Assembly (NCBI GenBank): GCA_021818465.1 | Contig: JAKAEA010000001.1 | Span: forward strand, 311,712 to 375,711 | Source: a bacterium | GTDB lineage: Bacteria; Patescibacteriota; Minisyncoccia; Phycocordibacterales; JAKAEA01 | Direction: 5' to 3' | DNA: 64,000 bases | In this document: positions 16,715 through 62,791 of the stretch, piece after piece | Layout of the letters: each line of letters opens with the position of its first letter | Position numbering within the stretch: position 1 is the first letter of the stretch | Notes under the pieces: generated by a model | What the model was told of the DNA's origin: nothing | The model's input: only the letters and a program-made list of their open reading frames with translations | Databases searched by the model: none | Made by a program: the position numbers and the translations under genes

Positions 16715-18069
16715 GAGCGAGCGGTGGGCGTTCGGGTACGGGCGGTGACGTGAACAGCTCGTTCACGTTGCCAGCTTGGCGTGCGTGAACGGAGCGCATT
16801 ATAGACTGACACGAGTAGCCAAAGCGGCGCGATAAGAGGAAAAATTAAAAAATACAACAGAACAGAAACGGAAAAACGCGAACGCTCACGGGCGAGAGCG
16901 TGCGCCTCGACAACCATGCCAATCATAAGAATATAAATTAAAAGCGTGAGTACAAGGTATGCTGGGGTGCTAATAAAAAACCAATTCCAGTGCCATGGTG
17001 AGAAGGAAAAACCGATAGTGTGGAAGCGTAGATACCAGTGCCAAAGTGTCACACCGAAACGATATATAAGAAACGCTATGGAAATCACGGCACCAAAAAT
17101 AAGAGCAAGGCCAAGTGGTGCGGTAAAGAGAGCCATATTGCCATAGCGTGGTCGCAATAGAATCCAATGATAGTCGCGCAGATTTAAAAGAAAGCCAGAT
17201 GTCCAGCGAACGCGTTGTGCGTAGAGTTTTTTGAAAGTAGCGGGACCAGTTGTGTACACGGTTGCCTCGTGAGCGTTTTCAATATGTAAATTTTTTGATT
17301 GAATACGAAAAGCCATTTCCATATCTTCGGTATTGTGGGCGTGTCGAAAAAAACCAACGTGGCTAAATAAATCTCGCCGAAAAAGAGAGAATGGTCCAGG
17401 AGTGACATAGATAGCACTAATAAGTGCTTGGACCTTTCTAATAAAAATACCAATAAGGTATTCAACACGTTGCAGAGCCTGGGCGAGTGTTTGTGGTCGA
17501 TAAATTTTCATCGCGGGAGTGACGGCGACAGTCATATGCTGGCGAGTGCCGATCGGTGTTTTCCAATCCTCAAAATAAGGAATCATTTTTTTCAATGCAT
17601 TTGCTTCAACAAACGAGTCGGCGTCTAAACAGCCGACAATATCGGTGGTAGCGTGGGCAATAGCGAAATTGAGCGCGGTATATTTGCCACCATTTTCTTT
17701 TCGGTGGGCGGTGACGATAGTGGGATACTGTTTTTGGTAACGTTGAATAACGTTCCAGGTATTGTCTTGCGAACCATCATCAACGGCACTGATATATAAT
17801 TTACCGACGGGATATTCAAGGGCAAGTAATGATTCAATTGTTTTTCCAACAGTTTTTTCTTCGTTATAACACGGAACAATAATGGTAACAGATGGGTATT
17901 CGTGGGTGTGTTCAAGGCTATCGTGAATTTTGGTGCGTGCGCGAATTTTTCGACGATTAATAAAATATGTACCCAAAATAAAGGTTTGAAAATAGATGCC
18001 TACAAAGAGGAAAATGTAGAGAACAACGGTTTGAATAGTGTTCATAAGAAGAGAAATGTAGTATAGCAA
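16711..18069 (-). CDS. Family 2 glycosyltransferase, processive membrane type (CesA/NodC-like)
   Basis: IIVPCYNEE, VDDGSQD, DAD, QRVRWTSG (QxxRW) motifs and multiple C-terminal TM helices. Confidence 0.8.
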   Translation of the reverse strand: MLYYISLLMNTIQTVVLYIFLFVGIYFQTFILGTYFINRRKIRARTKIHDSLEHTHEYPSVTIIVPCYNEEKTVGKTIESLLALEYPVGKLYISAVDDGSQDNTWNVIQRYQKQYPTIVTAHRKENGGKYTALNFAIAHATTDIVGCLDADSFVEANALKKMIPYFEDWKTPIGTRQHMTVAVTPAMKIYRPQTLAQALQRVEYLIGIFIRKVQALISAIYVTPGPFSLFRRDLFSHVGFFRHAHNTEDMEMAFRIQSKNLHIENAHEATVYTTGPATFKKLYAQRVRWTSGFLLNLRDYHWILLRPRYGNMALFTAPLGLALIFGAVISIAFLIYRFGVTLWHWYLRFHTIGFSFSPWHWNWFFISTPAYLVLTLLIYILMIGMVVEAHALARERSRFSVSVLLYFLIFPLIAPLWLLVSVYNALRSRTPSWQRERAVHVTARTRTPTARS

Positions 18070-36427: not shown

Positions 36428-36487
36428 GAGATTCGCAGTATAACAGACTATTGACCTTTTGCCATCCCTCTGCTACTATATCCGCCT

Positions 36488-38087: not shown

Positions 38088-38121
38088 CTTGGTGTGCGAG
38101 TAGTGGTATACTACGAATGTT

Positions 38122-49972: not shown

Positions 49973-50046
49973 ATCCTTATTATGACATATATGGAGATAA
50001 AATGTTTCTAAAATTTTTCTAAAGAAAAGTTGAAGAAAAGGTAAAA

Positions 50047-51650
<1,604 letters not shown>

Positions 51651-51654
<4 letters not shown>

Positions 51655-51992
51655 TCATGGCGGATTACTACGACACAATGCAAGTGTGCGTGCGATGGGG
51701 GCACAAGACGACGGAATACTATAACCGAAGCCCGCAGTGGGGTGCCGACTTCTGTCCGCAATGCGGAAGCGCGACTACCATCGTGTGTGGAAAATGTGGG
51801 GCTAACATACGTGGTCACCATCATTTTGATGGTTTTTTCTCTGCCGTAGACACTAAAGTGCCTCTCAACTGCCATGCCTGCGGCGTAGCGTATTCATGGA
51901 AGTTTCGACACGTCGTAAGAAACTTCTTCAAGGCGTTAGTCGCACCCGTGAAGTACCTGATAGACGCCCTGGTGAGCGTTTTCAAGAAATGA
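51651..51992 (+). CDS. Small Cys-rich zinc-ribbon protein embedded between hsdM and hsdS (113 aa)
   Basis: GTG/ATG start overlapping hsdM stop, stop overlapping hsdS ATG (ATGA); three CxxC pairs (CPQCG, CGKCG, CHACG). Confidence 0.55.
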
Positions 51993-53155
51993 GCATGGCA
52001 ACTACCGAATGGAAAGAAACAACACTTGGTGATGTCTGCCTTGTTGAGAGTGGCGGGACTCCTTCGACAGCGAATAATACATACTGGAGTGGCTCGGTCT
52101 CTTGGATAACGCCTCGAGACCTGGCGTCACATGAAGGCCGTTGGATTGAACAAGGCGAAAAGAACATTACGGAAGAAGGGTTGCGAAACTCTTCTGCGCG
52201 CTTGCTGCCGAAAAACACCGTACTTTTTTCTTCGCGTGCTCCCATCGGTTATGTAGCAATCGCTGCACGAGAACTGGCAACGAATCAGGGTTTAAAGAAT
52301 CTTGTATGTGATGAGAAAGAGACGCATTACAAGTTTATCTACTATTGGCTGAAGGCGAACGTGCATGCTATCGAGCGACGGGCGTCTGGCTCTACTTTTG
52401 CTGAAGCGTCCGCGACGGTAATGAAAACACAGGAGGTGTTGCTTCCGCCACTTGACGAGCAGCGCTCCATTGCAACAGTGCTCTCTAGCTTGGACGACAA
52501 AATCGAACTCCTACGACGGCAGAATGAGACACTAGAGCAGATTGCGCAGGCGATTTTCAACGAGTGGTTCGTGAAGCCGACGAGTAAGCGCGTACCGCTT
52601 CGCGAGTTGGTTGAGTTCAACCCAGCCACACCACTCAAAAAAGGAACCGTTGCGGCCTATTTTGACATGGGTGCGCTACCGACCGTGGGCAGTTGGCCCG
52701 AAGAACCCATACAAAGACCCTTCGGCTCGGGGGCGAAGTTCCAAAATGGAGACACTCTGCTTGCACGCATTACTCCTTGTCTCGAAAATGGCAAGACCGC
52801 ATTTGTGCAGCGTCTAAAAAATGGTGAGGTTGCGTGGGGTTCAACTGAATTCATCGTAATCCGCCCAAACTCACCGCTACCGCCTACGTTTGGGTATTTG
52901 CTCGCCAGGAATCCTTCGTTTCGAGATTTTACTATACGCGCAATGACTGGCACGTCTGGTAGGCAGCGCGTACAGGTAGATATGCTGCTCGAATATGAGG
53001 TCTCAATGCCGAGCGACGATGTGATATCGGAGTTCTCTCATGCGGTCGAGGTCATATTCTCAAAAATAAAGAACAATGCCGAGCAAGCCGACACACTGGC
53101 AGCTACGCGCGATGCGCTGTTGCCGCGGCTGATGAGTGGCGAAATACGAGTATAA
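51989..53155 (+). CDS. hsdS: Type I restriction-modification system specificity subunit
   Basis: Two target-recognition domains separated by conserved central repeat (LDEQRSIATVLSSLDDKIELL), C-terminal conserved helix (LPRLMSGEIRV). Confidence 0.85.
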   Translation: MSMATTEWKETTLGDVCLVESGGTPSTANNTYWSGSVSWITPRDLASHEGRWIEQGEKNITEEGLRNSSARLLPKNTVLFSSRAPIGYVAIAARELATNQGLKNLVCDEKETHYKFIYYWLKANVHAIERRASGSTFAEASATVMKTQEVLLPPLDEQRSIATVLSSLDDKIELLRRQNETLEQIAQAIFNEWFVKPTSKRVPLRELVEFNPATPLKKGTVAAYFDMGALPTVGSWPEEPIQRPFGSGAKFQNGDTLLARITPCLENGKTAFVQRLKNGEVAWGSTEFIVIRPNSPLPPTFGYLLARNPSFRDFTIRAMTGTSGRQRVQVDMLLEYEVSMPSDDVISEFSHAVEVIFSKIKNNAEQADTLAATRDALLPRLMSGEIRV

Positions 53156-53157
53156 AT

Positions 53158-53856
53158 ATGAGAATAATCAAACTTTACTTCAGAATATTTTGGATACCCG
53201 TCCTCCTCCTTGTGGCGGCGGTTGGGTGCTGGATTTTTGTTCCCAGTACAATAGATGTTTTTGATGCTGGAGTATTAGGTACAGCATTTGGTGTAGGCAT
53301 ATCAATTTTTGCTGCTGAAGGAATGAAGAAAGTGTCCGAACATAAACGCGTCAAGAGAACATTCGTCTTTTTGAAGCTGATCACTATTCCGTATCTAAAG
53401 AATCAGGCAGAAAATATATCTGCCACATTGAATAAATACCGCGATTTATGCTCCATAGAACAAACGGTAGATTTTCTTACATTGGGTGCACATTTTGATG
53501 CCATTGCGACAAATTTTGACAAAAGTTGGCTCCAGTTGGTGTACTCCCAGGATTTTGTTGATGCTATAGAGTCTGACGACCACTTCAATAAATTGGCGAA
53601 TGCAATTCTTGAGGTGCTTCTATTCATTAAACAGGCGACAGGGCAATCAATTAACGCGAAAACACTTCTTATGATGAACAATATCTCCAACCTCAATGAT
53701 ATTCAGAAACAAGAGATGATGACTCGTGCAAAAAAGATAAGAGACGATCTTTTAGATAATGTTCAAAAGTTGGAAAAATATATAGGTAAACTTGACGAAG
53801 AAATAATCGCATTTTTGATCAAGAATGGAGCTACGTATAGCGAATTTGAAAGATAA
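53158..53856 (+). CDS. Hypothetical 2-TM membrane protein embedded between hsdS and hsdR (AT-rich)
   Basis: Start 2 nt after hsdS stop, stop 1 nt before hsdR ATG; two N-terminal TM helices then helical soluble domain; ~35% GC within ~60% GC operon. Confidence 0.55.
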
Positions 53857-53857
53857 T

Positions 53858-56800
53858 ATGAACCGAATCTACGAAAGCGACATCGAGAAGTGGGCTATCG
53901 AGGCACTGGAACACCAGGGCTACACGTACCTCGCACCCGAGACGCAGGAGGCCGAGCGCGGTGACCTGCACGACGTCGTGCTCGCGGGGCGGTTGCGCGA
54001 GGCCGTGGCACGACTCAACCCTAGAGTGCCCGAAGACGCGCGCGAGGACGCGGTCAAAAAAGTGCTCGCGCTTTCGTCATCGCCGCACTTGATAGAGGCA
54101 AACGAGGAGTTCCAGCGGATGCTCACTGATGGCGTGAGCGTGTCTTCCTACGCTGATGGCGAACAACGTGGCGAGGTCGTCCGCGTCATCGACTTCGCAG
54201 ATCCGCGCAATAACGACCTCGTGGTGGCCAACCAGTTCTCGGTACTCCACGACAACACTAGCAAGCGCCCCGACGTGGTACTCATCGTCAACGGCCTGCC
54301 TCTCGTCGTCATCGAGCTAAAGAACCCGACGGATGAGAACGCGACCGTGCACAAGGCGTACCAGCAGCTCGACAACTACAAGCGAGCCATTCCGCAGCTG
54401 TTCGCCTACAACAGCGTCCTGGTGGCCTCTGACGGCATAGACGCGAAGGCAGGGGCGCTCACGAGCCCGTGGGAGCGCTTCGCTATCTGGCGTGCGCCCG
54501 AGGGTAAGCGCGAGAAGGAAAAGACGACGCCGCAGATGCAGGTGCTCGTCGAGGAGATGCTCCAGCCCGAGGTGCTGCTCGACGTGGTGCGCAGCTTTAC
54601 GGTCTTTGAGAAGACGCGCCGCGAGGATGCGAAAACAGGTCAGACCATCGTGGAAACCATCAAGAAAATCGCGCAGTATCACCAATACTACGTGGTCAAT
54701 AAAGCGGTCGCTTCGACGACTAAGGCCACCGCAGAACATGGCGAGCGCAAAATCGGCGTCGTATGGCATACGCAGGGTTCGGGCAAGTCGCTCTCGATGG
54801 TGTTCTACACGGGCAAGGTCGTGCTCGCGCTCGATAACCCGACGGTGGTGGTGCTCACTGACCGCAACGACCTCGACGACCAGCTCTTCGAGACGTTTGC
54901 TGGTGCTCGCGACCTCTTGCGCCAGGAGCCCGTGCAGGCCGAAAGCCGCGAACACCTGAAGAAGCTTTTGCAGACGGCTGGTGGCGGCATCATCTTCACC
55001 ACCATTCAGAAGTTCTTCCCCGAGGACGGCGGGAGCACGTATGACGAGCTGTCCGACCGCAAGAACATCGTCGTCGTTGCGGACGAGGCGCACCGCAGCC
55101 AGTACGGCTTCGCGGCGCGAACGGTCTTCAAGAACGACGAGGCCATCACGCGCTACGGCAGCGCCAAGTACCTGCGCGACGCACTCCCGAACGCCTCGTT
55201 CATCGGCTTCACGGGTACGCCTATCGAGAAGGAGGACAAGTCCACGCTCGCTGTTTTCGGCGAGTATCTCGACGTGTACGACATCCAGCGTGCGGTCGAA
55301 GACAAAGCAACCGTTCCCATCTACTACGAGAGCCGTTTGGTGAAGGTGCACCTGCCCGACGACAAGAAAGCGGAGATGGACGAAGACGTGGAGGCGGTGG
55401 CCGAGGGCATCGAGTTTTCAGCAAAGGAGAAAGCCAAAGCGAAGTGGGCGCAGCTCGAAGCCATCGTCGGTAATCGCGAGCGAATCAAAGAGGTCGCTCG
55501 CGACCTGGTGGAGCACTTTGAGACGCGGCAAGAGGTCTTCACGGGCAAAGCGATGGTCGTGGCGATGAGCCGTCGTATCGCGGTGGAGCTGTACGAGGAG
55601 ATTGTCGCGCTCCGTCCCGAGTGGCACAGCACCGATTTGGATAAGGGCAAAATCAAGGTGGTGATGTCGGCGAGTTCGAGCGACCCGAAAGAGTTCCAGC
55701 AGCACCACACGAACAAGCCCGACCGCCGCAAGCTCGCGGAGCGTTTCAAAGACCCTACCAACCCGCTCCAGCTCGTCATCGTGCGTGACATGTGGCTCAC
55801 GGGCTTCGACGTGCCGTGCCTGCACACGATGTACGTGGACAAGCTCATGGAGGGCCACAATCTCATGCAAGCCATCGCTCGCGTCAATCGCGTCTATAAA
55901 GACAAGCCAGGCGGTCTCATCGTGGACTACATCGGCTTTGCCTCCGACTTGCAGAAAGCGCTCGCCGTCTACACCGAGAGCGGCGGCAAGGGCGACCCGA
56001 CCATCACGCAGAAGAAAGCCATCGAGGTGATGCAGGAGAAGTACGAGGTGGTGAAGCAGATGTTCCATGGCTTCGACTACCAGCGCTACTTCGCCGCCGA
56101 CACGCACGCGAAGCTCGGCATTATCCTCGAGGCGCAGGAGCACATTCTCGCGCAAGACCAAGACGACGAAGGCGCGTCAGGCAAGGAAAAGAAGAAAACC
56201 AGCGCCAAAGAGCGGTTCGTGCGGGAGGTTATGGCGCTGTCGCAGTCGTTTGCGCTTGCGGTGCCGAGCGAGGCGGCGATGGAGATACGCGACGAGGTTG
56301 CGTTCTTCCAGGCAATCAAGGCACGGCTTGTGAAGTTTGAGCCCGAGGGCGCACCTGGCACCGAGAACATCGGTACCGCTATTCGCCAAATCGTCGATCA
56401 GGCACTCGTGGCCGAGGGTGTCGTGGACATCTTTGCTGCGGCAGGCGTGCAGAAGCCCGACCTCTCCGTTCTCTCGGACGAGTTCCTCGCCGAGGTGCAA
56501 GGCATGAAGCATCGCAACCTGGCGATGGAGTTGCTGCGCAAGATTTTGAACGACGAGATAAAGCTACGCCTGCGCCGCAACGCGCTCCAGGGCAAGAAGC
56601 TCTCGGAGATGCTCGATAAGACCATCAAGAAGTATCAAAACAACCTGCTCACGGCCTCCGAGGTCATCCAAGAGCTCATCGAGCTGGCAAAGCAGATACG
56701 GCAGGAAGACGCCCGCGGCACGCAACTCGGCCTCTCTGACGACGAGGTGGCCTTCTACGATGCGCTGGCCGAAAACGAGAGCGCCCGCGAGGTGCTGGGC

Positions 56801-57064
56801 GATGAACAGCTGCGCGACCTCGCCCGTGTCCTCGTCGACAAGGTGCGCAAGAACACCTCGATTGACTGGACTATCCGTGAGAACGTACAAGCCCGCCTGC
56901 GCGTCTTGGTGAAGCGCACGCTCAACCAGTACGGCTATCCGCCCGATAAGCAGGCCATCGCCACCGAGACCGTGCTGAAGCAGGCTGAACTATTCGCCGA
57001 CGAGTGGGATGATTCTAGTTTGGATACTGTACAAAAAATTACTTCAGAGACTTTAAAGAAATAA
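53858..57064 (+). CDS. hsdR: Type I restriction enzyme R subunit
   Basis: N-terminal nuclease/HsdR_N region, SF2 helicase motifs (GSGKS Walker A, DEAHRSQ), 1068 aa. Confidence 0.9.
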
Positions 57065-57148
57065 AAAACTACTTCCTAAGCCCTATATTTTCTTTAGAAA
57101 ATCTTCATAAAAAGTTTATATTAAATAATTCTTGCACCCAAGATCCTC

Positions 57149-57170
57149 CCATAATCTAATACGATTATGG
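57149..57170. promoter_or_regulatory. Perfect 8-bp inverted repeat CCATAATC-N6-GATTATGG
   Basis: Located ~85 nt after hsdR stop and ~170 nt upstream of next operon; operator- or terminator-like. Confidence 0.3.
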
Positions 57171-57337
57171 CGGTCGAAATCAGTACTCGAATTGCGGTAA
57201 AAAGCTAATGATGTTGCCGTTGAGTTATTCTTTATATGATGTGCAGTGCACGAGTTGTTCTTTCCACGCTCAAATTAAGACAAATTCAAGTTTTTACTTT
57301 GTTAAAAAGATAATCGCGGATTTTGCTATACTACCCC

Positions 57338-57496
57338 CATGGGCTGGTTCATATTCATCGCCTTCATTTGTTTTCTCATTGTGCTGGGAGTGGTGCTGGG
57401 TAAAGACCCTATAAAGTTCACGATTGGGACGCTCGTGGTTCTTATGGCGTTGGCCTTTGTGGTTATAGCGTTTTACGTGCTTAAATCTGTGTTATG
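57338..57496 (+). CDS. Small membrane protein (52 aa, two hydrophobic helices)
   Basis: Not in ORF track (below 60 aa); preceded by extended -10 TGCTATACT; stop overlaps next gene start (ATGA). Confidence 0.45.
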
Positions 57497-58033
57497 ATTA
57501 TAAATATCATGTTCATCTGGATTATTGTCGCAATTTTGCTCTTTGTGCTGGTTGTTGTAATGGCGACCAACGTGGTGGCGGGAGGCCGTAGGCGGAGGGG
57601 TGGCTATACCTACAAAAAAGCTGATTGTGTTATGACGCAATCAGAAAAAATATGTTTTGAAGCGTTACAGAAAGCGGCGGGGAATACGTATTATATTTTC
57701 CCCCAGATGCACTTATCGGCCATTTTAAATCACAAAATCAACAGGCAGAGTTGGTATGGAGCCTTTCGGCATATTAATGGGAAATCGGTTGACTTTGTTT
57801 TGTGCGATAAGGTGATGCTCAAGCCGATGTTAGTTGTTGAACTGGATGACAGAACGCACGAGCGGCGTGATAGGCATATACGAGACAGAGAAGTAGAACG
57901 GATACTTAAAGAGGCTGATGTGCCGCTACTGCGGCTTTCGACCGTGTCGCCGCAAGACCCACTGGCTGTGGCGATTAATGGGGCAATAACGAGAACGTCA
58001 ATTGACCACGTGATGGGTTCTCAGGGGGTTTGA
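57494..58033 (+). CDS. DUF2726 domain protein (restriction-endonuclease-like fold) with N-terminal TM helix
   Basis: EKICFEAL...YIFPQMHLSAIL...GKSVDFVLCDK...PMLVVELDDRTHE matches DUF2726/PD-(D/E)xK-like pattern. Confidence 0.6.
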   Translation: MIINIMFIWIIVAILLFVLVVVMATNVVAGGRRRRGGYTYKKADCVMTQSEKICFEALQKAAGNTYYIFPQMHLSAILNHKINRQSWYGAFRHINGKSVDFVLCDKVMLKPMLVVELDDRTHERRDRHIRDREVERILKEADVPLLRLSTVSPQDPLAVAINGAITRTSIDHVMGSQGV

Positions 58034-58078
58034 AAGAATTTCACAAATACTTTATCTCCGGGTGGTATACTCCGCTCA

Positions 58079-58783
58079 ATGGATGCGGAATCGTTAAAAT
58101 TGGAACAACAGGCATACGATTTTATTGCTCATAGTGGGAGTGAGCTTGTTAAGCGTTTCGCCGACCCAACAATATATAAGCCAGTAGAGCGACCAGTCTC
58201 GCTTTTTATGGCCGGCTCGTCGGGGGCAGGAAAGACGGAAGTCTCTATAGGTTTAGTTAAACGTTTTACCACGAGGCCGATCCGGATTGATGCTGACGAA
58301 ATTCGGCAACTGTGTCCGGGGTATACTGGTGGCAATGCTCATGTATTTCAGAAGGCAGCTACCAAGGGCGTAAACATGCTTTTTGACTATGCACTTCATA
58401 AAAATATCCACGCCATCCTTGACGGCACGTTCGCGTATGCTGACGCGCCAAAGAATATTGAACGTTCATTGAAACATAACAGGATTGTCGAATTGTGGTT
58501 TGTGTATCAAGACCCTTTAGTGGCATGGGAGTTTACCAAAGTAAGAGAAATAAAAGAATGTCGTCATGTAGATAAGGATATCTTCATTAGAGGTTTCTTC
58601 AACGCAAAAGCCAATGCAATAAATGTTAAAACAGCTTTTGGAAGCAACCTTACGCTTAATTTACTCGTAAAGAACATCGACAATACTGACGGTGAGTTGT
58701 TTTTGAACATTCAAGCAAACGACCTTGACCATCGAATTGGGCAGGTATACACTGAGGGTGAATTGCGAGGACTATTACTATGA
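58079..58783 (+). CDS. Zeta-toxin-like P-loop kinase
   Basis: Walker A FMAGSSGAGKT, overall zeta_toxin/AAA_33 pattern, ~234 aa. Confidence 0.6.
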   Translation: MDAESLKLEQQAYDFIAHSGSELVKRFADPTIYKPVERPVSLFMAGSSGAGKTEVSIGLVKRFTTRPIRIDADEIRQLCPGYTGGNAHVFQKAATKGVNMLFDYALHKNIHAILDGTFAYADAPKNIERSLKHNRIVELWFVYQDPLVAWEFTKVREIKECRHVDKDIFIRGFFNAKANAINVKTAFGSNLTLNLLVKNIDNTDGELFLNIQANDLDHRIGQVYTEGELRGLLL

Positions 58784-58977
58784 TGAAATTTTTTAAGAAT
58801 ATAACCGGCAGATTGACCGGAAAAAAAGCTGTCGCGACGGAAAAAGACGACTTTGCCGATTTCTTTTTAAATGCTAAATCGGCGGAAAAAACGAAGATAC
58901 TCCGACAAGTGATGAGGGAAGCAATAGCGGAACAAAAAGCGGTTATGGAAAAATATAATAATAGGGCGAAAGTTTGA
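58780..58977 (+). CDS. Small hypothetical protein coupled to zeta-like kinase (65 aa)
   Basis: ATGA overlap with upstream stop; Lys/Glu-rich helical. Confidence 0.4.
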   Translation: MMKFFKNITGRLTGKKAVATEKDDFADFFLNAKSAEKTKILRQVMREAIAEQKAVMEKYNNRAKV

Positions 58978-59046
58978 TATTATTGAATTCCGTAACATTT
59001 TAAATTAGTAGTTGTTATTCTAGGTTGTTAGTACATATATACCCCC

Positions 59047-59253
59047 ATGCAAAACGAATATGATGCGGACGAGCTGCGCGACATCGCCGACATTATGGAT
59101 GAGGTGGGGGTGGACGCGGATCGGGCGGAGGAAATCAAGGAATTGAAGGAGAGTCACAATCTCGATACCGAGCAGGCGGCCCGGGCTAAGGAGCTCATGG
59201 ACGATGATGGATTAGACGAGGACACGGCGGCGGCGCTTTGTGATTTTCTATAA
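59047..59253 (+). CDS. Small acidic protein, family member 1 (68 aa)
   Basis: Shares C-terminal motif EL.ES..L..E.A.R.K.L.D.DGLDE..A with 60282..60632 and 60677..60949. Confidence 0.5.
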   Translation: MQNEYDADELRDIADIMDEVGVDADRAEEIKELKESHNLDTEQAARAKELMDDDGLDEDTAAALCDFL

Positions 59254-59298
59254 CCTGCGATCGCTTCGGTAGGAGAGTGATATACTAAATACTTTAAA

Positions 59299-59781
59299 AT
59301 GAATAAACGATCTCTTTTTGCTCTCGTTATTTTTATTCTTAGCACCGAGGCGGTGGGGATGCTGGGTGCCTTGGCGACGACGCCGAATATTGCCACTTGG
59401 TATGCGGGATTGGTAAAGCCGATGTTGACGCCTCCAGGCTGGGTTTTCGGGCCGGTGTGGGTGACGCTCTATCTGCTCATGGGCATTGCGATGTTTTTGG
59501 TGTGGCGAAGGAGGGGTATTGGTTCTCGGCGCGATTGGTGGTTGGCACGGATTTTTTATTCGGTTCAGCTAATGCTCAATTTGCTGTGGTCCATTGTCTT
59601 TTTTGGTTTGCACAATAGTAGCGGAGGCTTGGGGGTGATTGCGACGCTGTGGATGCTGATTCTTTTGACGATCATCTTTTTCGGGCGAGTTTCCAGGGCA
59701 GCGGCTTGGCTTTTGGTGCCATATATTGTTTGGGTGAGTTTCGCAATGTATTTGAATCTGGGAATTTGGTTATGTAATTAA
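59299..59781 (+). CDS. tspO: TspO/MBR family tryptophan-rich sensory protein
   Basis: Five TM helices, Trp-rich, WYAGLVKP..PPGWVFGPVW and LNLLWS motifs. Confidence 0.8.
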   Translation: MNKRSLFALVIFILSTEAVGMLGALATTPNIATWYAGLVKPMLTPPGWVFGPVWVTLYLLMGIAMFLVWRRRGIGSRRDWWLARIFYSVQLMLNLLWSIVFFGLHNSSGGLGVIATLWMLILLTIIFFGRVSRAAAWLLVPYIVWVSFAMYLNLGIWLCN

Positions 59782-59786
59782 GGCCG

Positions 59787-60194
59787 GTGTTTATTTTTCA
59801 TCATCTTCGTTTGAGGCTTCGACGGCGCGCGATACGGCGGCCGAATGCTCGCGCTCGGGCTCATTTCTTGGCGCATAAGGAGCGGGCGCGGGAATTAGTA
59901 GCTCGGAAGATCCCCGAGCTTAATGCGCTGCCGGGCTATGGCTTTGCGGTCGGCCGCGTAGCGATACGAAATCAAAAAAGTCGCTGGGGAAGTTGCTCGG
60001 CCAGGGGGAATTTAAATTTTAATTATCGGGTGGCTTTCTTGCCGGAGCGGCTGGTGGATTACGTGGTGGTGCACGAGCTGTGCCATTTGCGGGAGCTTAA
60101 CCATTCAGCGGCGTTTTGGGCGCTGGTGGCGCAGGCGGTGCCGGATTGGCGGGTGAAGCGGCGGGAGTTGCGGATGATTGAGCGCTCTTTTTAG
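59787..60194 (+). CDS. YgjP-like (DUF45/WLM) metal-dependent hydrolase, short form
   Basis: HELCHLRELNHSAAFWALV (HExxH...NHS) C-terminal signature. Confidence 0.6.
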   Translation: MFIFHHLRLRLRRRAIRRPNARARAHFLAHKERARELVARKIPELNALPGYGFAVGRVAIRNQKSRWGSCSARGNLNFNYRVAFLPERLVDYVVVHELCHLRELNHSAAFWALVAQAVPDWRVKRRELRMIERSF

Positions 60195-60281: not shown

Positions 60282-60632
60282 ATGAAAAATAATTTTAGAC
60301 AAAATAACGACGAGGAGTTTGCAGATGAAGAAGAAAACGAAAAGATCGGCACCGATGCTTCCGATGAGGCTGACGCGGACGATGCGGATGACGATGCGGA
60401 TGATGAAACTGATGCAGATGACGAGGATGGTGCAGATGACGAAGATTCCGCTGAAGATGATATGAGTGACGACGCTGCGGATGATGCTGAAGAAACCGAT
60501 GAAGAACTGGCCGAGCTCATGGAATCCTATGACTTGAGCGAAGAGGATGCCCAACGGGTAAAAAAACTGATTGATGAAGATGGTCTTGATGAGCGCGACG
60601 CGGTTGACATGATCGAAGAAAACTTGGATTAA
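60282..60632 (+). CDS. Highly acidic Asp/Glu-rich protein, family member 2 (116 aa)
   Basis: ~45% D/E with (DADD)n tract; C-terminal conserved helical motif shared with 59047 and 60677 genes. Confidence 0.5.
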   Translation: MKNNFRQNNDEEFADEEENEKIGTDASDEADADDADDDADDETDADDEDGADDEDSAEDDMSDDAADDAEETDEELAELMESYDLSEEDAQRVKKLIDEDGLDERDAVDMIEENLD

Positions 60633-60676: not shown

Positions 60677-60949
60677 GTGATAACCCATGATTTTAAAAAA
60701 GAAGATGCGCCGGTGTTGGCGGAACATATTCCTGATTACGACATTGATGCAGATGATGAAAGCCAGCAGCCCGCCGTGCGCGTAGAAGAAGATTTAAGCG
60801 CGGGTATTAGTGATCCCATTATTTTTGAACTGATGGATGCCTACGGCTTAGATGACGAGCAGGCCTTTGATGTGCGGACGATGATTGTCCGTTGGGGAAT
60901 TGATGAAGAAGAGGCGGTGGAACGGGTGCGCAACGCTTCACGTTTGTAA
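60677..60949 (+). CDS. Acidic protein, family member 3 (90 aa)
   Basis: ELMDAYGLDDEQAFDVRTMIVRWGIDEEEAVE motif homologous to other two. Confidence 0.45.
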   Translation: MITHDFKKEDAPVLAEHIPDYDIDADDESQQPAVRVEEDLSAGISDPIIFELMDAYGLDDEQAFDVRTMIVRWGIDEEEAVERVRNASRL

Positions 60950-61726: not shown

Positions 61727-62713
61727 TCAGGCCAGATACACCAGACCACCAGAAATTTTTATAGTATCAGATACTTCGAGGAGTGTTATAGCTATATTAC
61801 CGCGGCTGGTAGACAGGGCGGCGTACTCAATGAGTTCATCTGTACGTATAGGGCCTCGTTCTATGAGTACGGCAAGAATGGCACGTTCGTCGGGTGTGGC
61901 GGTAGGAAATCGGCCGGCGAGCGCAATTGAATCTTTGACGGCAAACAGTTCTAAGGTTTTTGTACTGTTCTTTTTGGTGTTGGTGTGTGGATGAGGCGGT
62001 GGTTGGGGTGGTGGCGCTAGGTCAAGCGCGTCAATAATATCAGCGGCACTGGTGACTAATCGTGCCCCTTGCGCAAGAAGGTAATGTGGTCCAGCAGTAT
62101 GTTGCGAAAAAATTGAGCCAGGTACAGTCAGTACATCACGATTGTAATCAGTGGCAAGACGAGCGGTAATCATCGTACCGCTTTTTTGCTCGGCTTCAAT
62201 AATGAGCACTGCATGACTCATGCCGGCCATTAACCGGTTGCGTTGCGGGAATGATTCGGGTCGAGCGCGCTGGTCGGGCAAAAATTCAGAAAGGAGCGCT
62301 CCGCCGGCCGCTATAATTTTCTGTGCTAATTTTTGGTTGGCGCGCGGATAGAGTACCTGATCGTCTAAACCAGAACCGGGCCAGGCTATTGTTACTAAGC
62401 CGCTATCTACAGCACTTTGATGAGCGAGGGCGTCTATACCCAGCGCGAGGCCGGAAACGATGACAATACGGCTAGAGCCATCGCTGCGGCGTCGTTGGGT
62501 CTGACGGGCTAATCCGCCAATAAGCTTTTGGCACACGTCGTGACCATAGTGACTGTAGCTACGTGAGCCAACGACACATAAAAGTTTGGCATCGGAGCGC
62601 GGGAGCGTGCCGCGCACAAAAAGTCGCGTGGGCGGATCATCTATTTCTCGCAGAAGTGCCGGAAATTGTTCTGGAGTGATTTCGTATATTTCTTGTCGCA
62701 TACTGTAATACAT
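61727..62713 (-). CDS. dprA: DNA processing protein A (DprA/Smf)
   Basis: Rossmann-like DprA core (CVVGSRSYSHYG, IVSGLALGIDALAHQ), C-terminal winged helix. Confidence 0.8.
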   Translation of the reverse strand: MYYSMRQEIYEITPEQFPALLREIDDPPTRLFVRGTLPRSDAKLLCVVGSRSYSHYGHDVCQKLIGGLARQTQRRRSDGSSRIVIVSGLALGIDALAHQSAVDSGLVTIAWPGSGLDDQVLYPRANQKLAQKIIAAGGALLSEFLPDQRARPESFPQRNRLMAGMSHAVLIIEAEQKSGTMITARLATDYNRDVLTVPGSIFSQHTAGPHYLLAQGARLVTSAADIIDALDLAPPPQPPPHPHTNTKKNSTKTLELFAVKDSIALAGRFPTATPDERAILAVLIERGPIRTDELIEYAALSTSRGNIAITLLEVSDTIKISGGLVYLA

Positions 62714-62791
62714 ATCGCACTAACGCTCAAAAAAATCTGAAGCATTGTCCCCGTTTTGTGGTATACTTTTCTTACTATATACATACCCACT

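Follow-up and report, generated by a model that had tools for sequence, protein, structure and literature searches.

The window analyzed here is a 64,000-nucleotide stretch of a Patescibacteriota contig (JAKAEA010000001.1 of assembly GCA_021818465.1, positions 311,712 to 375,711 of the forward strand). The element under study is a 52-codon open reading frame (ORF) that encodes a predicted membrane hairpin and ends inside the start codon of a gene for a DUF2726 protein anchored by a transmembrane (TM) helix. The features at this junction, in window coordinates, are the following.

57240..57262, + strand: terminator-like hairpin with a T-rich tail, 3' of hsdR, TGTGCAGTGCACG followed by AGTTGTTCTT (pattern scan, consensus match only)
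57324..57332, + strand: extended -10 box TGCTATACT, 6 nucleotides upstream of the peptide ATG
57339..57497, + strand: peptide gene, 52-amino-acid two-helix membrane hairpin, MGWFIFIAFICFLIVLGVVLGKDPIKFTIGTLVVLMALAFVVIAFYVLKSVL
57490..57498, + strand: putative further extended -10 box TGTTATGAT, within the 3' end of the peptide ORF, 10 nucleotides before Met6 of the next gene
57494..58033, + strand: DUF2726 gene, TM-anchored protein of 179 amino acids (Pfam), with an alternative start at 57509 (Met6)

The peptide has a grand average of hydropathy of 2.12 and carries two hydrophobic segments, at approximately residues 3 to 20 and 27 to 48, with GKDPIK between them; the Kyte-Doolittle means over 15 residues reach 3.4 in the first segment and 3.0 in the second. 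Its stop codon (TGA, 57495-57497) overlaps the ATG of the DUF2726 gene (57494-57496) in a 4-nucleotide ATGA. Coordinates and hydropathy agree with an earlier reading made from the letters of the stretch (the sequence-only reading), which had described a 52-amino-acid ORF with two TM segments ending in this ATGA; only its start had to be moved one base later, from 57338 to 57339. The same reading had noted that the small ORF was missing from its list of open reading frames. Annotation systematically misses small membrane proteins, and this peptide is a case in point: the NCBI record of the genome that encodes it (GCA_027341405.1, DAIEME010000001.1, 540 kb) has no gene call between hsdR and DUF2726. 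The 52-amino-acid gene is called in an independent Logan assembly of identical sequence, and the locus is identical in all three assemblies that carry it. The 52-codon ORF is a genuine, previously unannotated gene.

Relatives of the peptide were searched for at increasing depth. A word-seeded protein search with the peptide alone recovered only the peptide itself. An exhaustive phmmer search of 1.84 billion representatives returned a single homologue of 56 amino acids (P0122; E=3.7e-5), encoded on a Candidatus Kaiserbacteria chromosome (L011/L084) and 60% identical to the window peptide over residues 1 to 42. A profile built from these two sequences led to six more proteins (P0123-P0128), and a back-translated DNA scan of metagenome contigs led to nine more loci (L087-L095). 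The family now holds 17 sequences of approximately 55 amino acids, every one on Patescibacteria or candidate phyla radiation (CPR)-type contigs. It is rare: of 5.8 billion protein clusters 8 belong to it, and 241 million metagenome records contained 9 of its loci.

The family consensus is MGWLLLIGLFCFLLVLGAxLGKxPLxFAISSxVVLxAxxFxGFVxLIxWxLLxSH, with C11, F12, L13, V15, G17, P24, A37 and F40 invariant in the 17-sequence alignment; the G17-x3-G21 spacing can be read directly from the peptide sequence. The hairpins of the family are almost uncharged, and the window peptide is the most divergent member known. Its score against the family hidden Markov model (HMM), 72.6 bits and E=2e-20, is circular, since the window sequence helped to build the model; independent support for its membership comes from the phmmer match and from the 17-sequence alignment. 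Between the window and L084 peptide genes synonymous differences are saturated (pS=0.85) and nonsynonymous differences are few (pN=0.23-0.29), and the mean pairwise difference per codon position across 14 family loci is 0.376/0.169/0.611. The codon-position pattern, together with the saturated pS and low pN, indicates that the gene is protein-coding and under purifying selection.

Known families and mobile elements gave no relatives. The peptide matched no model in Pfam, NCBIfam, PADLOC or PHROGs, and all 17 members gave only noise in Pfam at E<=10. Megablast of positions 57100-59300 found no match in complete E. coli genomes or in plasmids, and Rfam and tRNA scans of the region found nothing. 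A search of 2.9 million viral contigs (IMG/VR) returned no relative of the peptide, and neither did searches of 50,697 phage records (INPHARED) and 72,556 plasmids, where the low-complexity filter of BLAST may lower sensitivity.

The gene that recurs beside the peptide encodes a small, strongly acidic protein. A gene of this acidic family (43 to 66 amino acids) lies 1 to 25 nucleotides 3' of the peptide gene at P0122, P0125, P0127, L087, L088, L089, L091, L093 and L094; at P0126 a 43-amino-acid gene lies directly downstream and was counted by size and position only. With P0126 included, the acidic gene follows the peptide immediately in 10 of 14 other lineages, and in L096 (P0128) it is directly adjacent on the other side, 25 nucleotides upstream of the peptide gene. 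The companion is typically of about 45 amino acids, the core of the family reads approximately EE-x-A-x-LMEEHGID-x-DTAEKVQELIDEGLDEDDAVELADEL, and net charges range from -14 to -50. No database match was found for the acidic mini-protein family. Synteny therefore identifies a predicted acidic helical protein, and not DUF2726, as the conserved companion of the peptide. The window encodes three members of the acidic family.

59047..59253, + strand: acidic homologue, 68 amino acids, net charge -18 (family HMM, alignment, tblastn)
60282..60632, + strand: acidic paralogue, 116 amino acids, net charge -50 (family HMM, alignment)
60677..60949, + strand: acidic paralogue, 90 amino acids, net charge -17 (family HMM, alignment)

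The AlphaFold2 model of the 68-amino-acid protein has four helices (pLDDT 88). Its gene starts 1,550 nucleotides past the peptide stop, behind DUF2726, a Zeta_toxin-family gene and a 65-codon ORF (orf65), and so lies beyond the 1 to 25 nucleotides seen at the loci listed above. Further copies of the acidic family were found in L011 (3824-3970), L042 (4424-4555) and L067 (4931-5068). DUF2726 has an acidic gene as its immediate neighbor in L042 and L084, and in L067 a single gene separates the two; copies also occur beside TspO and YgjP genes. One of the window paralogues carries an N-terminal tail of about 70 residues of poly-D/E/A.

The start of the peptide gene was examined for transcription and translation signals. 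The putative terminator, a consensus match, separates the restriction gene hsdR from the transcription unit of the peptide. An extended -10 promoter just upstream of the small ORF had been proposed in the sequence-only reading, and this was borne out: TGCTATACT stands 6 nucleotides before the ATG, and its motif is enriched in the window and always found at gene starts. TGNTATACT occurs 7 times against 1.13 expected, an approximately 6-fold excess that none of 100 shuffles reached, and all 7 copies precede the first ATG of a correctly oriented ORF by 6 to 24 nucleotides (ATGs at 18045(-), 36427(-), 38122, 57339, 58079, 59299 and approximately 62792, the last being serS). We take TGNTATACT, from its sequence distribution, to be a promoter-type box of this genome. 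The boxes other than that of the peptide are at 18060-18068(-), 36437-36445(-), 38104-38112, 58063-58071, 59278-59286 and 62759-62767.

More generally, TANNNT lies 5 to 10 nucleotides upstream of 20 of the 49 first ATGs of long ORFs in the window, versus 9.7% of other ATGs (p=1e-8), and a Shine-Dalgarno-like motif precedes only 6 of these 49 (∼12%). The source genome seems to depend strongly on mRNAs with no leader or almost none. The same arrangement is found across the peptide family: TANNNT is placed 6 or 7 nucleotides before the peptide ATG in 9 of 14 loci, versus a background of 5.8% (p=1e-8), four of these boxes being TATAAT and four TG-extended. On these alignments, a -10 box before the ATG is a conserved layout of the family. 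No GGAG-type motif precedes the window peptide, and its mRNA is probably leaderless, because the 6-nucleotide spacer puts the canonical transcription start, 7 nucleotides after the hexamer, at the A of the ATG. The second gene in family loci either begins one nucleotide after the stop codon (TGAtATG or TAAtATG) or has a -10 box of its own, as in L089, L091 and L094, where the box is 6 nucleotides before the ATG of the acidic gene.

The protein encoded downstream of the peptide is a bona fide member of DUF2726. It matches the Pfam model (PF10881) over residues 46 to 155 with E=1.3e-27 and 96.5 bits against a cut-off of 24.7. Its N-terminus is a hydrophobic helix (residues ∼3 to 25) followed by RRRR, in agreement with the previous description of a TM-anchored DUF2726 protein; given the RRRR stretch and the positive-inside rule, the nuclease-fold domain would be cytoplasmic. 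D100, E116, D118, D119 and H122 are invariant in a 28-sequence alignment. The AlphaFold2 model made with these 28 homologues has a pLDDT of 86 and strands at 98-105 and 111-117, and its best PDB matches in Foldseek are BstEII (E=8e-4), BpuSI, TnsA and I-Bth0305I, all of the restriction-endonuclease fold. A PDB sequence search with the DUF2726 profile gave nothing significant. From the model, the protein is assigned a Vsr-like PD-(D/E)xK fold with a predicted nuclease role.

DUF2726 has been described as a family of unassigned function often found near mobile elements (PMC3424549) and as a restriction-endonuclease-fold DNase domain fused to N-terminal domains of the abortive infection (Abi) type (PMC3710099). 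The clade studied here differs in that a TM helix and, after it, a basic stretch form the N-terminus, and its neighbors vary. At least 518 DUF2726 loci were found in species-representative genomes, nearly all labelled Patescibacteria. About 3.7 kb 3' of the DUF2726 gene stands a gene for DprA (DNA-processing protein A; 61727-62719, - strand); with the TM clade widespread in CPR bacteria and DprA nearby, a role in the processing of incoming DNA is worth considering. The closest homologue, P0002 (L083, 4931-5441; 63% identity), seems to be without a proper start, with an out-of-frame ATGATG running into a T8 homopolymer just ahead of the TM helix, which suggests a sequencing frameshift or a pseudogene.

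The sequence-only reading had also proposed that the peptide may be a membrane partner of the nuclease-fold protein. In this reading the peptide is a dedicated partner or regulator of DUF2726, translated together with it, and the hairpin assembles with the N-terminal helix of the nuclease. The 4-nucleotide overlap with no Shine-Dalgarno motif before DUF2726 would fit, as would the predicted embedding of both products in the membrane. In the Kaiserbacteria chromosome (L084), moreover, the distance between the peptide homologue and a DUF2726 gene is 2.4 kb, and the 16-kb L084 locus and the 64-kb window have no other gene clearly in common, the one further match being a weak methyltransferase similarity (24% identity, E=1.6e-4).

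The proposal was confronted with 80 loci around DUF2726 homologues taken from species-representative genomes. With the genome of the window excluded, this gave 78 other DUF2726 loci, namely 77 searchable ones (L003-L082 minus L021, L057 and L066) and the closest homologue, L083. In none of the 78 did the family HMM find a peptide member abutting the DUF2726 start; the single member among them, in L011, lies 2.4 kb downstream of DUF2726. An ORF screen of the DUF2726 loci with enough upstream sequence likewise found no ORF of at most 100 amino acids with at least two TM segments abutting the start. The upstream neighbors in the screened loci were all different, and in L083 a divergent gene is found there. 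Conversely, DUF2726 is absent from eight other peptide loci (3 to 8 kb of sequence each), and the conserved neighbor of the peptide is the acidic protein. The short hydrophobic ORF is therefore not conserved upstream of DUF2726 homologues, an outcome that the sequence-only reading itself had named as telling against the partnership, and we consider a dedicated partnership quite unlikely. An ATGA overlap alone is no sign of one. Judged by synteny, the overlap is an expression arrangement peculiar to this lineage and not a conserved peptide-nuclease partnership; a looser functional link between DUF2726 and the module may exist.

How DUF2726 is expressed from this arrangement was considered separately. 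No Shine-Dalgarno motif precedes either of its possible starts (57494 and 57509), homologue N-termini begin 2 to 4 residues before the TM helix and do not discriminate between Met1 and Met6, the predicted RNA fold at the junction does not stand out (z=-0.07), and the peptide ORF plus junction folds no more stably than shuffled sequences. Re-initiation at the AUGA overlap is, by a modest margin over even chances, the probable route of translation. DUF2726 could instead be independent, with the internal -10 box TGTTATGAT giving a short-leader mRNA read from Met6 and the ATGA overlap being a by-product of the box. TGTTATGAT matches TGNTANNNT 10 nucleotides before the ATG at 57509, the homologue N-termini fit Met6 at least as well as Met1, and small genes of related islands often have their own -10 box 6 or 7 nucleotides upstream (the acidic genes of L089, L091 and L094 and the Zeta gene of L095). 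Speaking against it are the 10-nucleotide spacing, the rarest class in the window with 1 of the 22 boxes at gene starts, and the hexamer TATGAT, which is weaker than the TATACT or TATAAT of other genes. We regard independent expression as a tentative second option. The overlap and the lack of a Shine-Dalgarno motif would fit the translational coupling proposed in the sequence-only reading; the box before Met6 would give DUF2726 a possible initiation signal of its own.

The genes surrounding the peptide and DUF2726 in the window include the following.

53825..57064, + strand: HsdR, type I restriction subunit (Pfam domains), 60% GC, upstream of the peptide
58063..58071, + strand: extended -10 box TGGTATACT, 7 nucleotides before the Zeta ATG
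58079..58783, + strand: Zeta_toxin-family P-loop kinase, 234 amino acids (Pfam E=1.8e-32)
58780..58977, + strand: orf65, 65 amino acids, overlapping the Zeta stop by 4 nucleotides, conserved beside the Zeta genes of this clade

The same-strand gene immediately 5' of the peptide encodes HsdR in the window and a type III restriction enzyme in L092, L093, L094 and L097. In L105 a PDC-S06 ATPase and a Cas4-like nuclease precede the peptide, overlapping its start by 4 nucleotides; in L096 a type I methylase and PDC-S59 are followed by the acidic gene; L084 has hsdS remnants; and P0126 has a Replic_Relax protein. The genes downstream of the pair are different in every family locus. Defense neighbors, variable flanks and absence from the viral, phage and plasmid collections together suggest that the pair is a rare accessory module of CPR defense islands.

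In the window the order is peptide, DUF2726, Zeta, orf65 and acidic gene, and DUF2726 at that position is unique to this genome. L095 has the order peptide, Zeta and a 64-amino-acid ORF, and its genes are the closest relatives found of the window Zeta (48%) and orf65 (40%); a homologue of orf65 also lies directly 3' of Zeta in L052. In L084 the acidic gene and the peptide are separated by DUF2726, an insertion sequence of the IS3 family and hsdS remnants, and in L096 the homologous acidic gene borders the peptide directly. The position between the peptide and the acidic gene would then be a variable slot in a small-gene module, for which we claim no ancestral order.

Several observations on these islands are recorded here. 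The Zeta gene and its ORF of about 65 codons occupy 58079-58977 in the window, 268-1181 in L095 and 5637-6484 in L052. The classical epsilon/zeta (PezAT) order is the reverse of Zeta followed by a small ORF, and for this reason the small ORF may be an unusual, putative downstream antitoxin. In L084 (5630-7472), OrfA and OrfB of the IS3-family element (minus strand) and two hsdS fragments stand between DUF2726 and the peptide, and this island is under active rearrangement. L097 and L098 share 97% identity from the end of the type III restriction gene through the peptide and acidic genes to about 700 nucleotides past them, and then diverge; the end of identity marks a strain-level breakpoint just downstream of the pair. 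In L089 (119-514) and L093 (4434-4973), two extra small proteins of 63 to 106 amino acids lie ahead of the peptide gene; they share the motif EE(L/I)E(K/E)FK-x-(I/L)Y-x-KR(F/Y)G, and PADLOC gave no match for them.

The restriction block of the window (50023-57064) is a mosaic in GC content, with hsdM and hsdR at about 60%, hsdS at about 50% and a 232-amino-acid ORF between hsdS and hsdR (53158-53856) at about 40%; its flanks are at about 50% and the island that follows at 37 to 46%. This mosaic suggests horizontal acquisition and shuffling of modules. Genes for TspO and a YgjP-like metallopeptidase recur beside DUF2726 in several Patescibacteria (window 59299-60194; L054 3977-5092; L024 21-1264; L064, L067, L012, L036 and L075). 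YgjP lies 22 nucleotides from DUF2726 in L054 and L024, as separate genes, and TspO follows it directly in L064 and L067. The YgjP ORF of the window (135 amino acids, GTG start) spans only profile positions 96 to 205 of 207 and may be truncated or mis-started.

The account that we favor brings these elements together. The peptide would be transcribed from its own extended -10 box, with the ribosome starting at the 5'-terminal AUG. The peptide-acidic pair sits at the 3' flank of restriction or other defense genes in variable islands, and in this genome three further island genes (DUF2726, Zeta and orf65) are found between the peptide and the acidic homologue. DUF2726 holds the position of a second cistron and would be reached by re-initiation at the AUGA or expressed from the weaker internal -10 box TGTTATGAT with a start at Met6. 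The hairpin may insert and oligomerize in the membrane, as its conserved GxxxG-like motif, cysteine and proline suggest, and within the island it may have a toxin-like or effector-like role, with the acidic protein as its putative neutralizer or regulator. Taken as a whole (a real hairpin gene, leaderless, with an acidic companion, a defense flank and a lineage-specific DUF2726 overlap), this reading of the sequences seems to us reasonably probable.

A number of points weigh against it. L090 and L092 are family loci with no acidic gene, and a PDB fold search with the 68-amino-acid acidic protein gave no significant match. Of about 10 family loci with enough flank, two (the window and L084) have the peptide and DUF2726 no more than 3 kb apart, and in L084 the order is acidic gene, DUF2726, peptide. 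The evidence for a leaderless start and for re-initiation comes from the sequence, and toxicity, oligomerization and binding by the acidic protein are proposals.

Other explanations of the small ORF itself can be weighed against the same evidence. A chance open frame in the 5' untranslated region of DUF2726 would account for its being uncalled in the NCBI record and for the lack of Pfam, NCBIfam, PHROG and PADLOC matches, yet sixteen homologues show a coding-type substitution pattern, with amino acids conserved although synonymous sites are saturated. The homologues and their coding-type substitutions refute this reading, whose probability we consider practically nil. Scarcely more credible is the idea that the peptide serves a prophage or another mobile element as a holin of class II type. 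A holin could have this size and two TM segments, the L084 peptide has a terminase-like gene and one for a ParB-methylase as neighbors, and 2 of the 17 members match Holin_SPP1 weakly (E=0.2-0.33). The cut-off of that model is 27 bits, however, and the match reaches 11.6; genes for endolysins or spanins are missing from all family loci, and the family has no relatives among the viral contigs, phage records and plasmids searched. The holin-like role suggested in the sequence-only reading is therefore disfavored, the surroundings of the window peptide also being free of endolysin genes; the toxin-like role named beside it may apply.

The main alternative to the favored account is that the peptide and the acidic protein form an ordinary lineage-specific membrane pair, with no defense or toxic role, that happens to flank an integration hot spot for defense genes. 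The flanking genes differ on both sides at every locus, L097 and L098 are nearly identical through the pair and divergent after it, and no defense-system model matches the peptide or the 68-amino-acid acidic protein of the window, all of which would be expected of such a pair. Against this, the rarity of the family makes a housekeeping role unlikely, and in most loci a restriction or defense gene lies at the left on the same strand, often within 7 to 25 nucleotides. We hold this alternative to be unlikely. To about the same low degree we would entertain an extension of the favored account, in which the hairpin and the acidic mini-protein constitute a new, minimal toxin/antitoxin-like or abortive-infection module of CPR bacteria, leaderless and placed 3' of defense operons, with a slot for further toxins (DUF2726, Zeta); the acidic protein would be a promiscuous neutralizer or a DNA-mimic sensor that links the failure of restriction to an attack on the membrane.

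What is new is a peptide family in the poorly understood CPR/Patescibacteria, with a conserved partner and a defense-island setting. The more interesting outcome of the analysis is this peptide-acidic family together with the leaderless gene layout of these genomes, and gene finders for these organisms should allow for -10 boxes placed right before start codons. Should a toxin-like or defense function of the pair be borne out, CPR bacteria would have their first described module of this kind, and one of the smallest on record; otherwise the pair would still be useful for marking variable islands.

Small membrane toxins of toxin-antitoxin (TA) systems are the first group to which the peptide can be compared. 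GhoT is a type V toxin of 57 amino acids with two TM helices, and Hok, TisB and Fst are further small membrane TA toxins. With 52 residues the peptide falls within the size and TM profile of such toxins (at most 60 amino acids, mainly TM helix), and it shares with them a length of 50 to 60 amino acids, extreme hydrophobicity and two predicted TM helices, as well as a tight two-gene module in mobile or defense regions. It differs in that no toxin model matches it (Pfam at E<=10, NCBIfam, PADLOC and PHROGs) and in that its companion is a downstream hyper-acidic protein and not a GhoS-type RNase or an antisense RNA, for which no systematic search was made. Membership in the GhoT family was rejected, as the 17 members gave only noise in Pfam at E<=10.

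Class II holins and pinholins, of about 65 to 70 amino acids and with two TM helices, resemble the peptide in size class, hairpin topology and a possible oligomerization motif, whereas the lysis-cassette context, phage occurrence and a significant model match are lacking here. The Pmp3/YqaE proteolipids (UPF0057, PF01679), of 52 to 57 amino acids with two TM helices, are identical in size, share the hairpin and have a superficially similar N-terminus and an LG..LGK turn; PF01679 is nevertheless matched by none of the 17 members even at E<=10, and the peptide is not a member.

In systems of the colicin DNase/Im and barnase/barstar types, a toxin is paired with a small acidic helical inhibitor. 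The acidic mini-proteins have no sequence similarity or significant fold similarity to solved proteins, and most copies are found beside the peptide and not beside a nuclease. The likeness, which is one of analogy only, lies in a very acidic, all-helical (as predicted) mini-protein as companion, also present beside DUF2726 in L042 and L084.

The gene layout also has a counterpart. Leaderless genes with a -10 box about 7 nucleotides upstream of the start codon have been described for Actinobacteria and Deinococcus; for Patescibacteria/CPR bacteria, no report of leaderless genes was found in the literature searched. The arrangement seen here is the same, with TANNNT or TGNTANNNT placed 6 to 9 nucleotides before the ATG in about 40% of the genes of the window and in most members of the peptide family.

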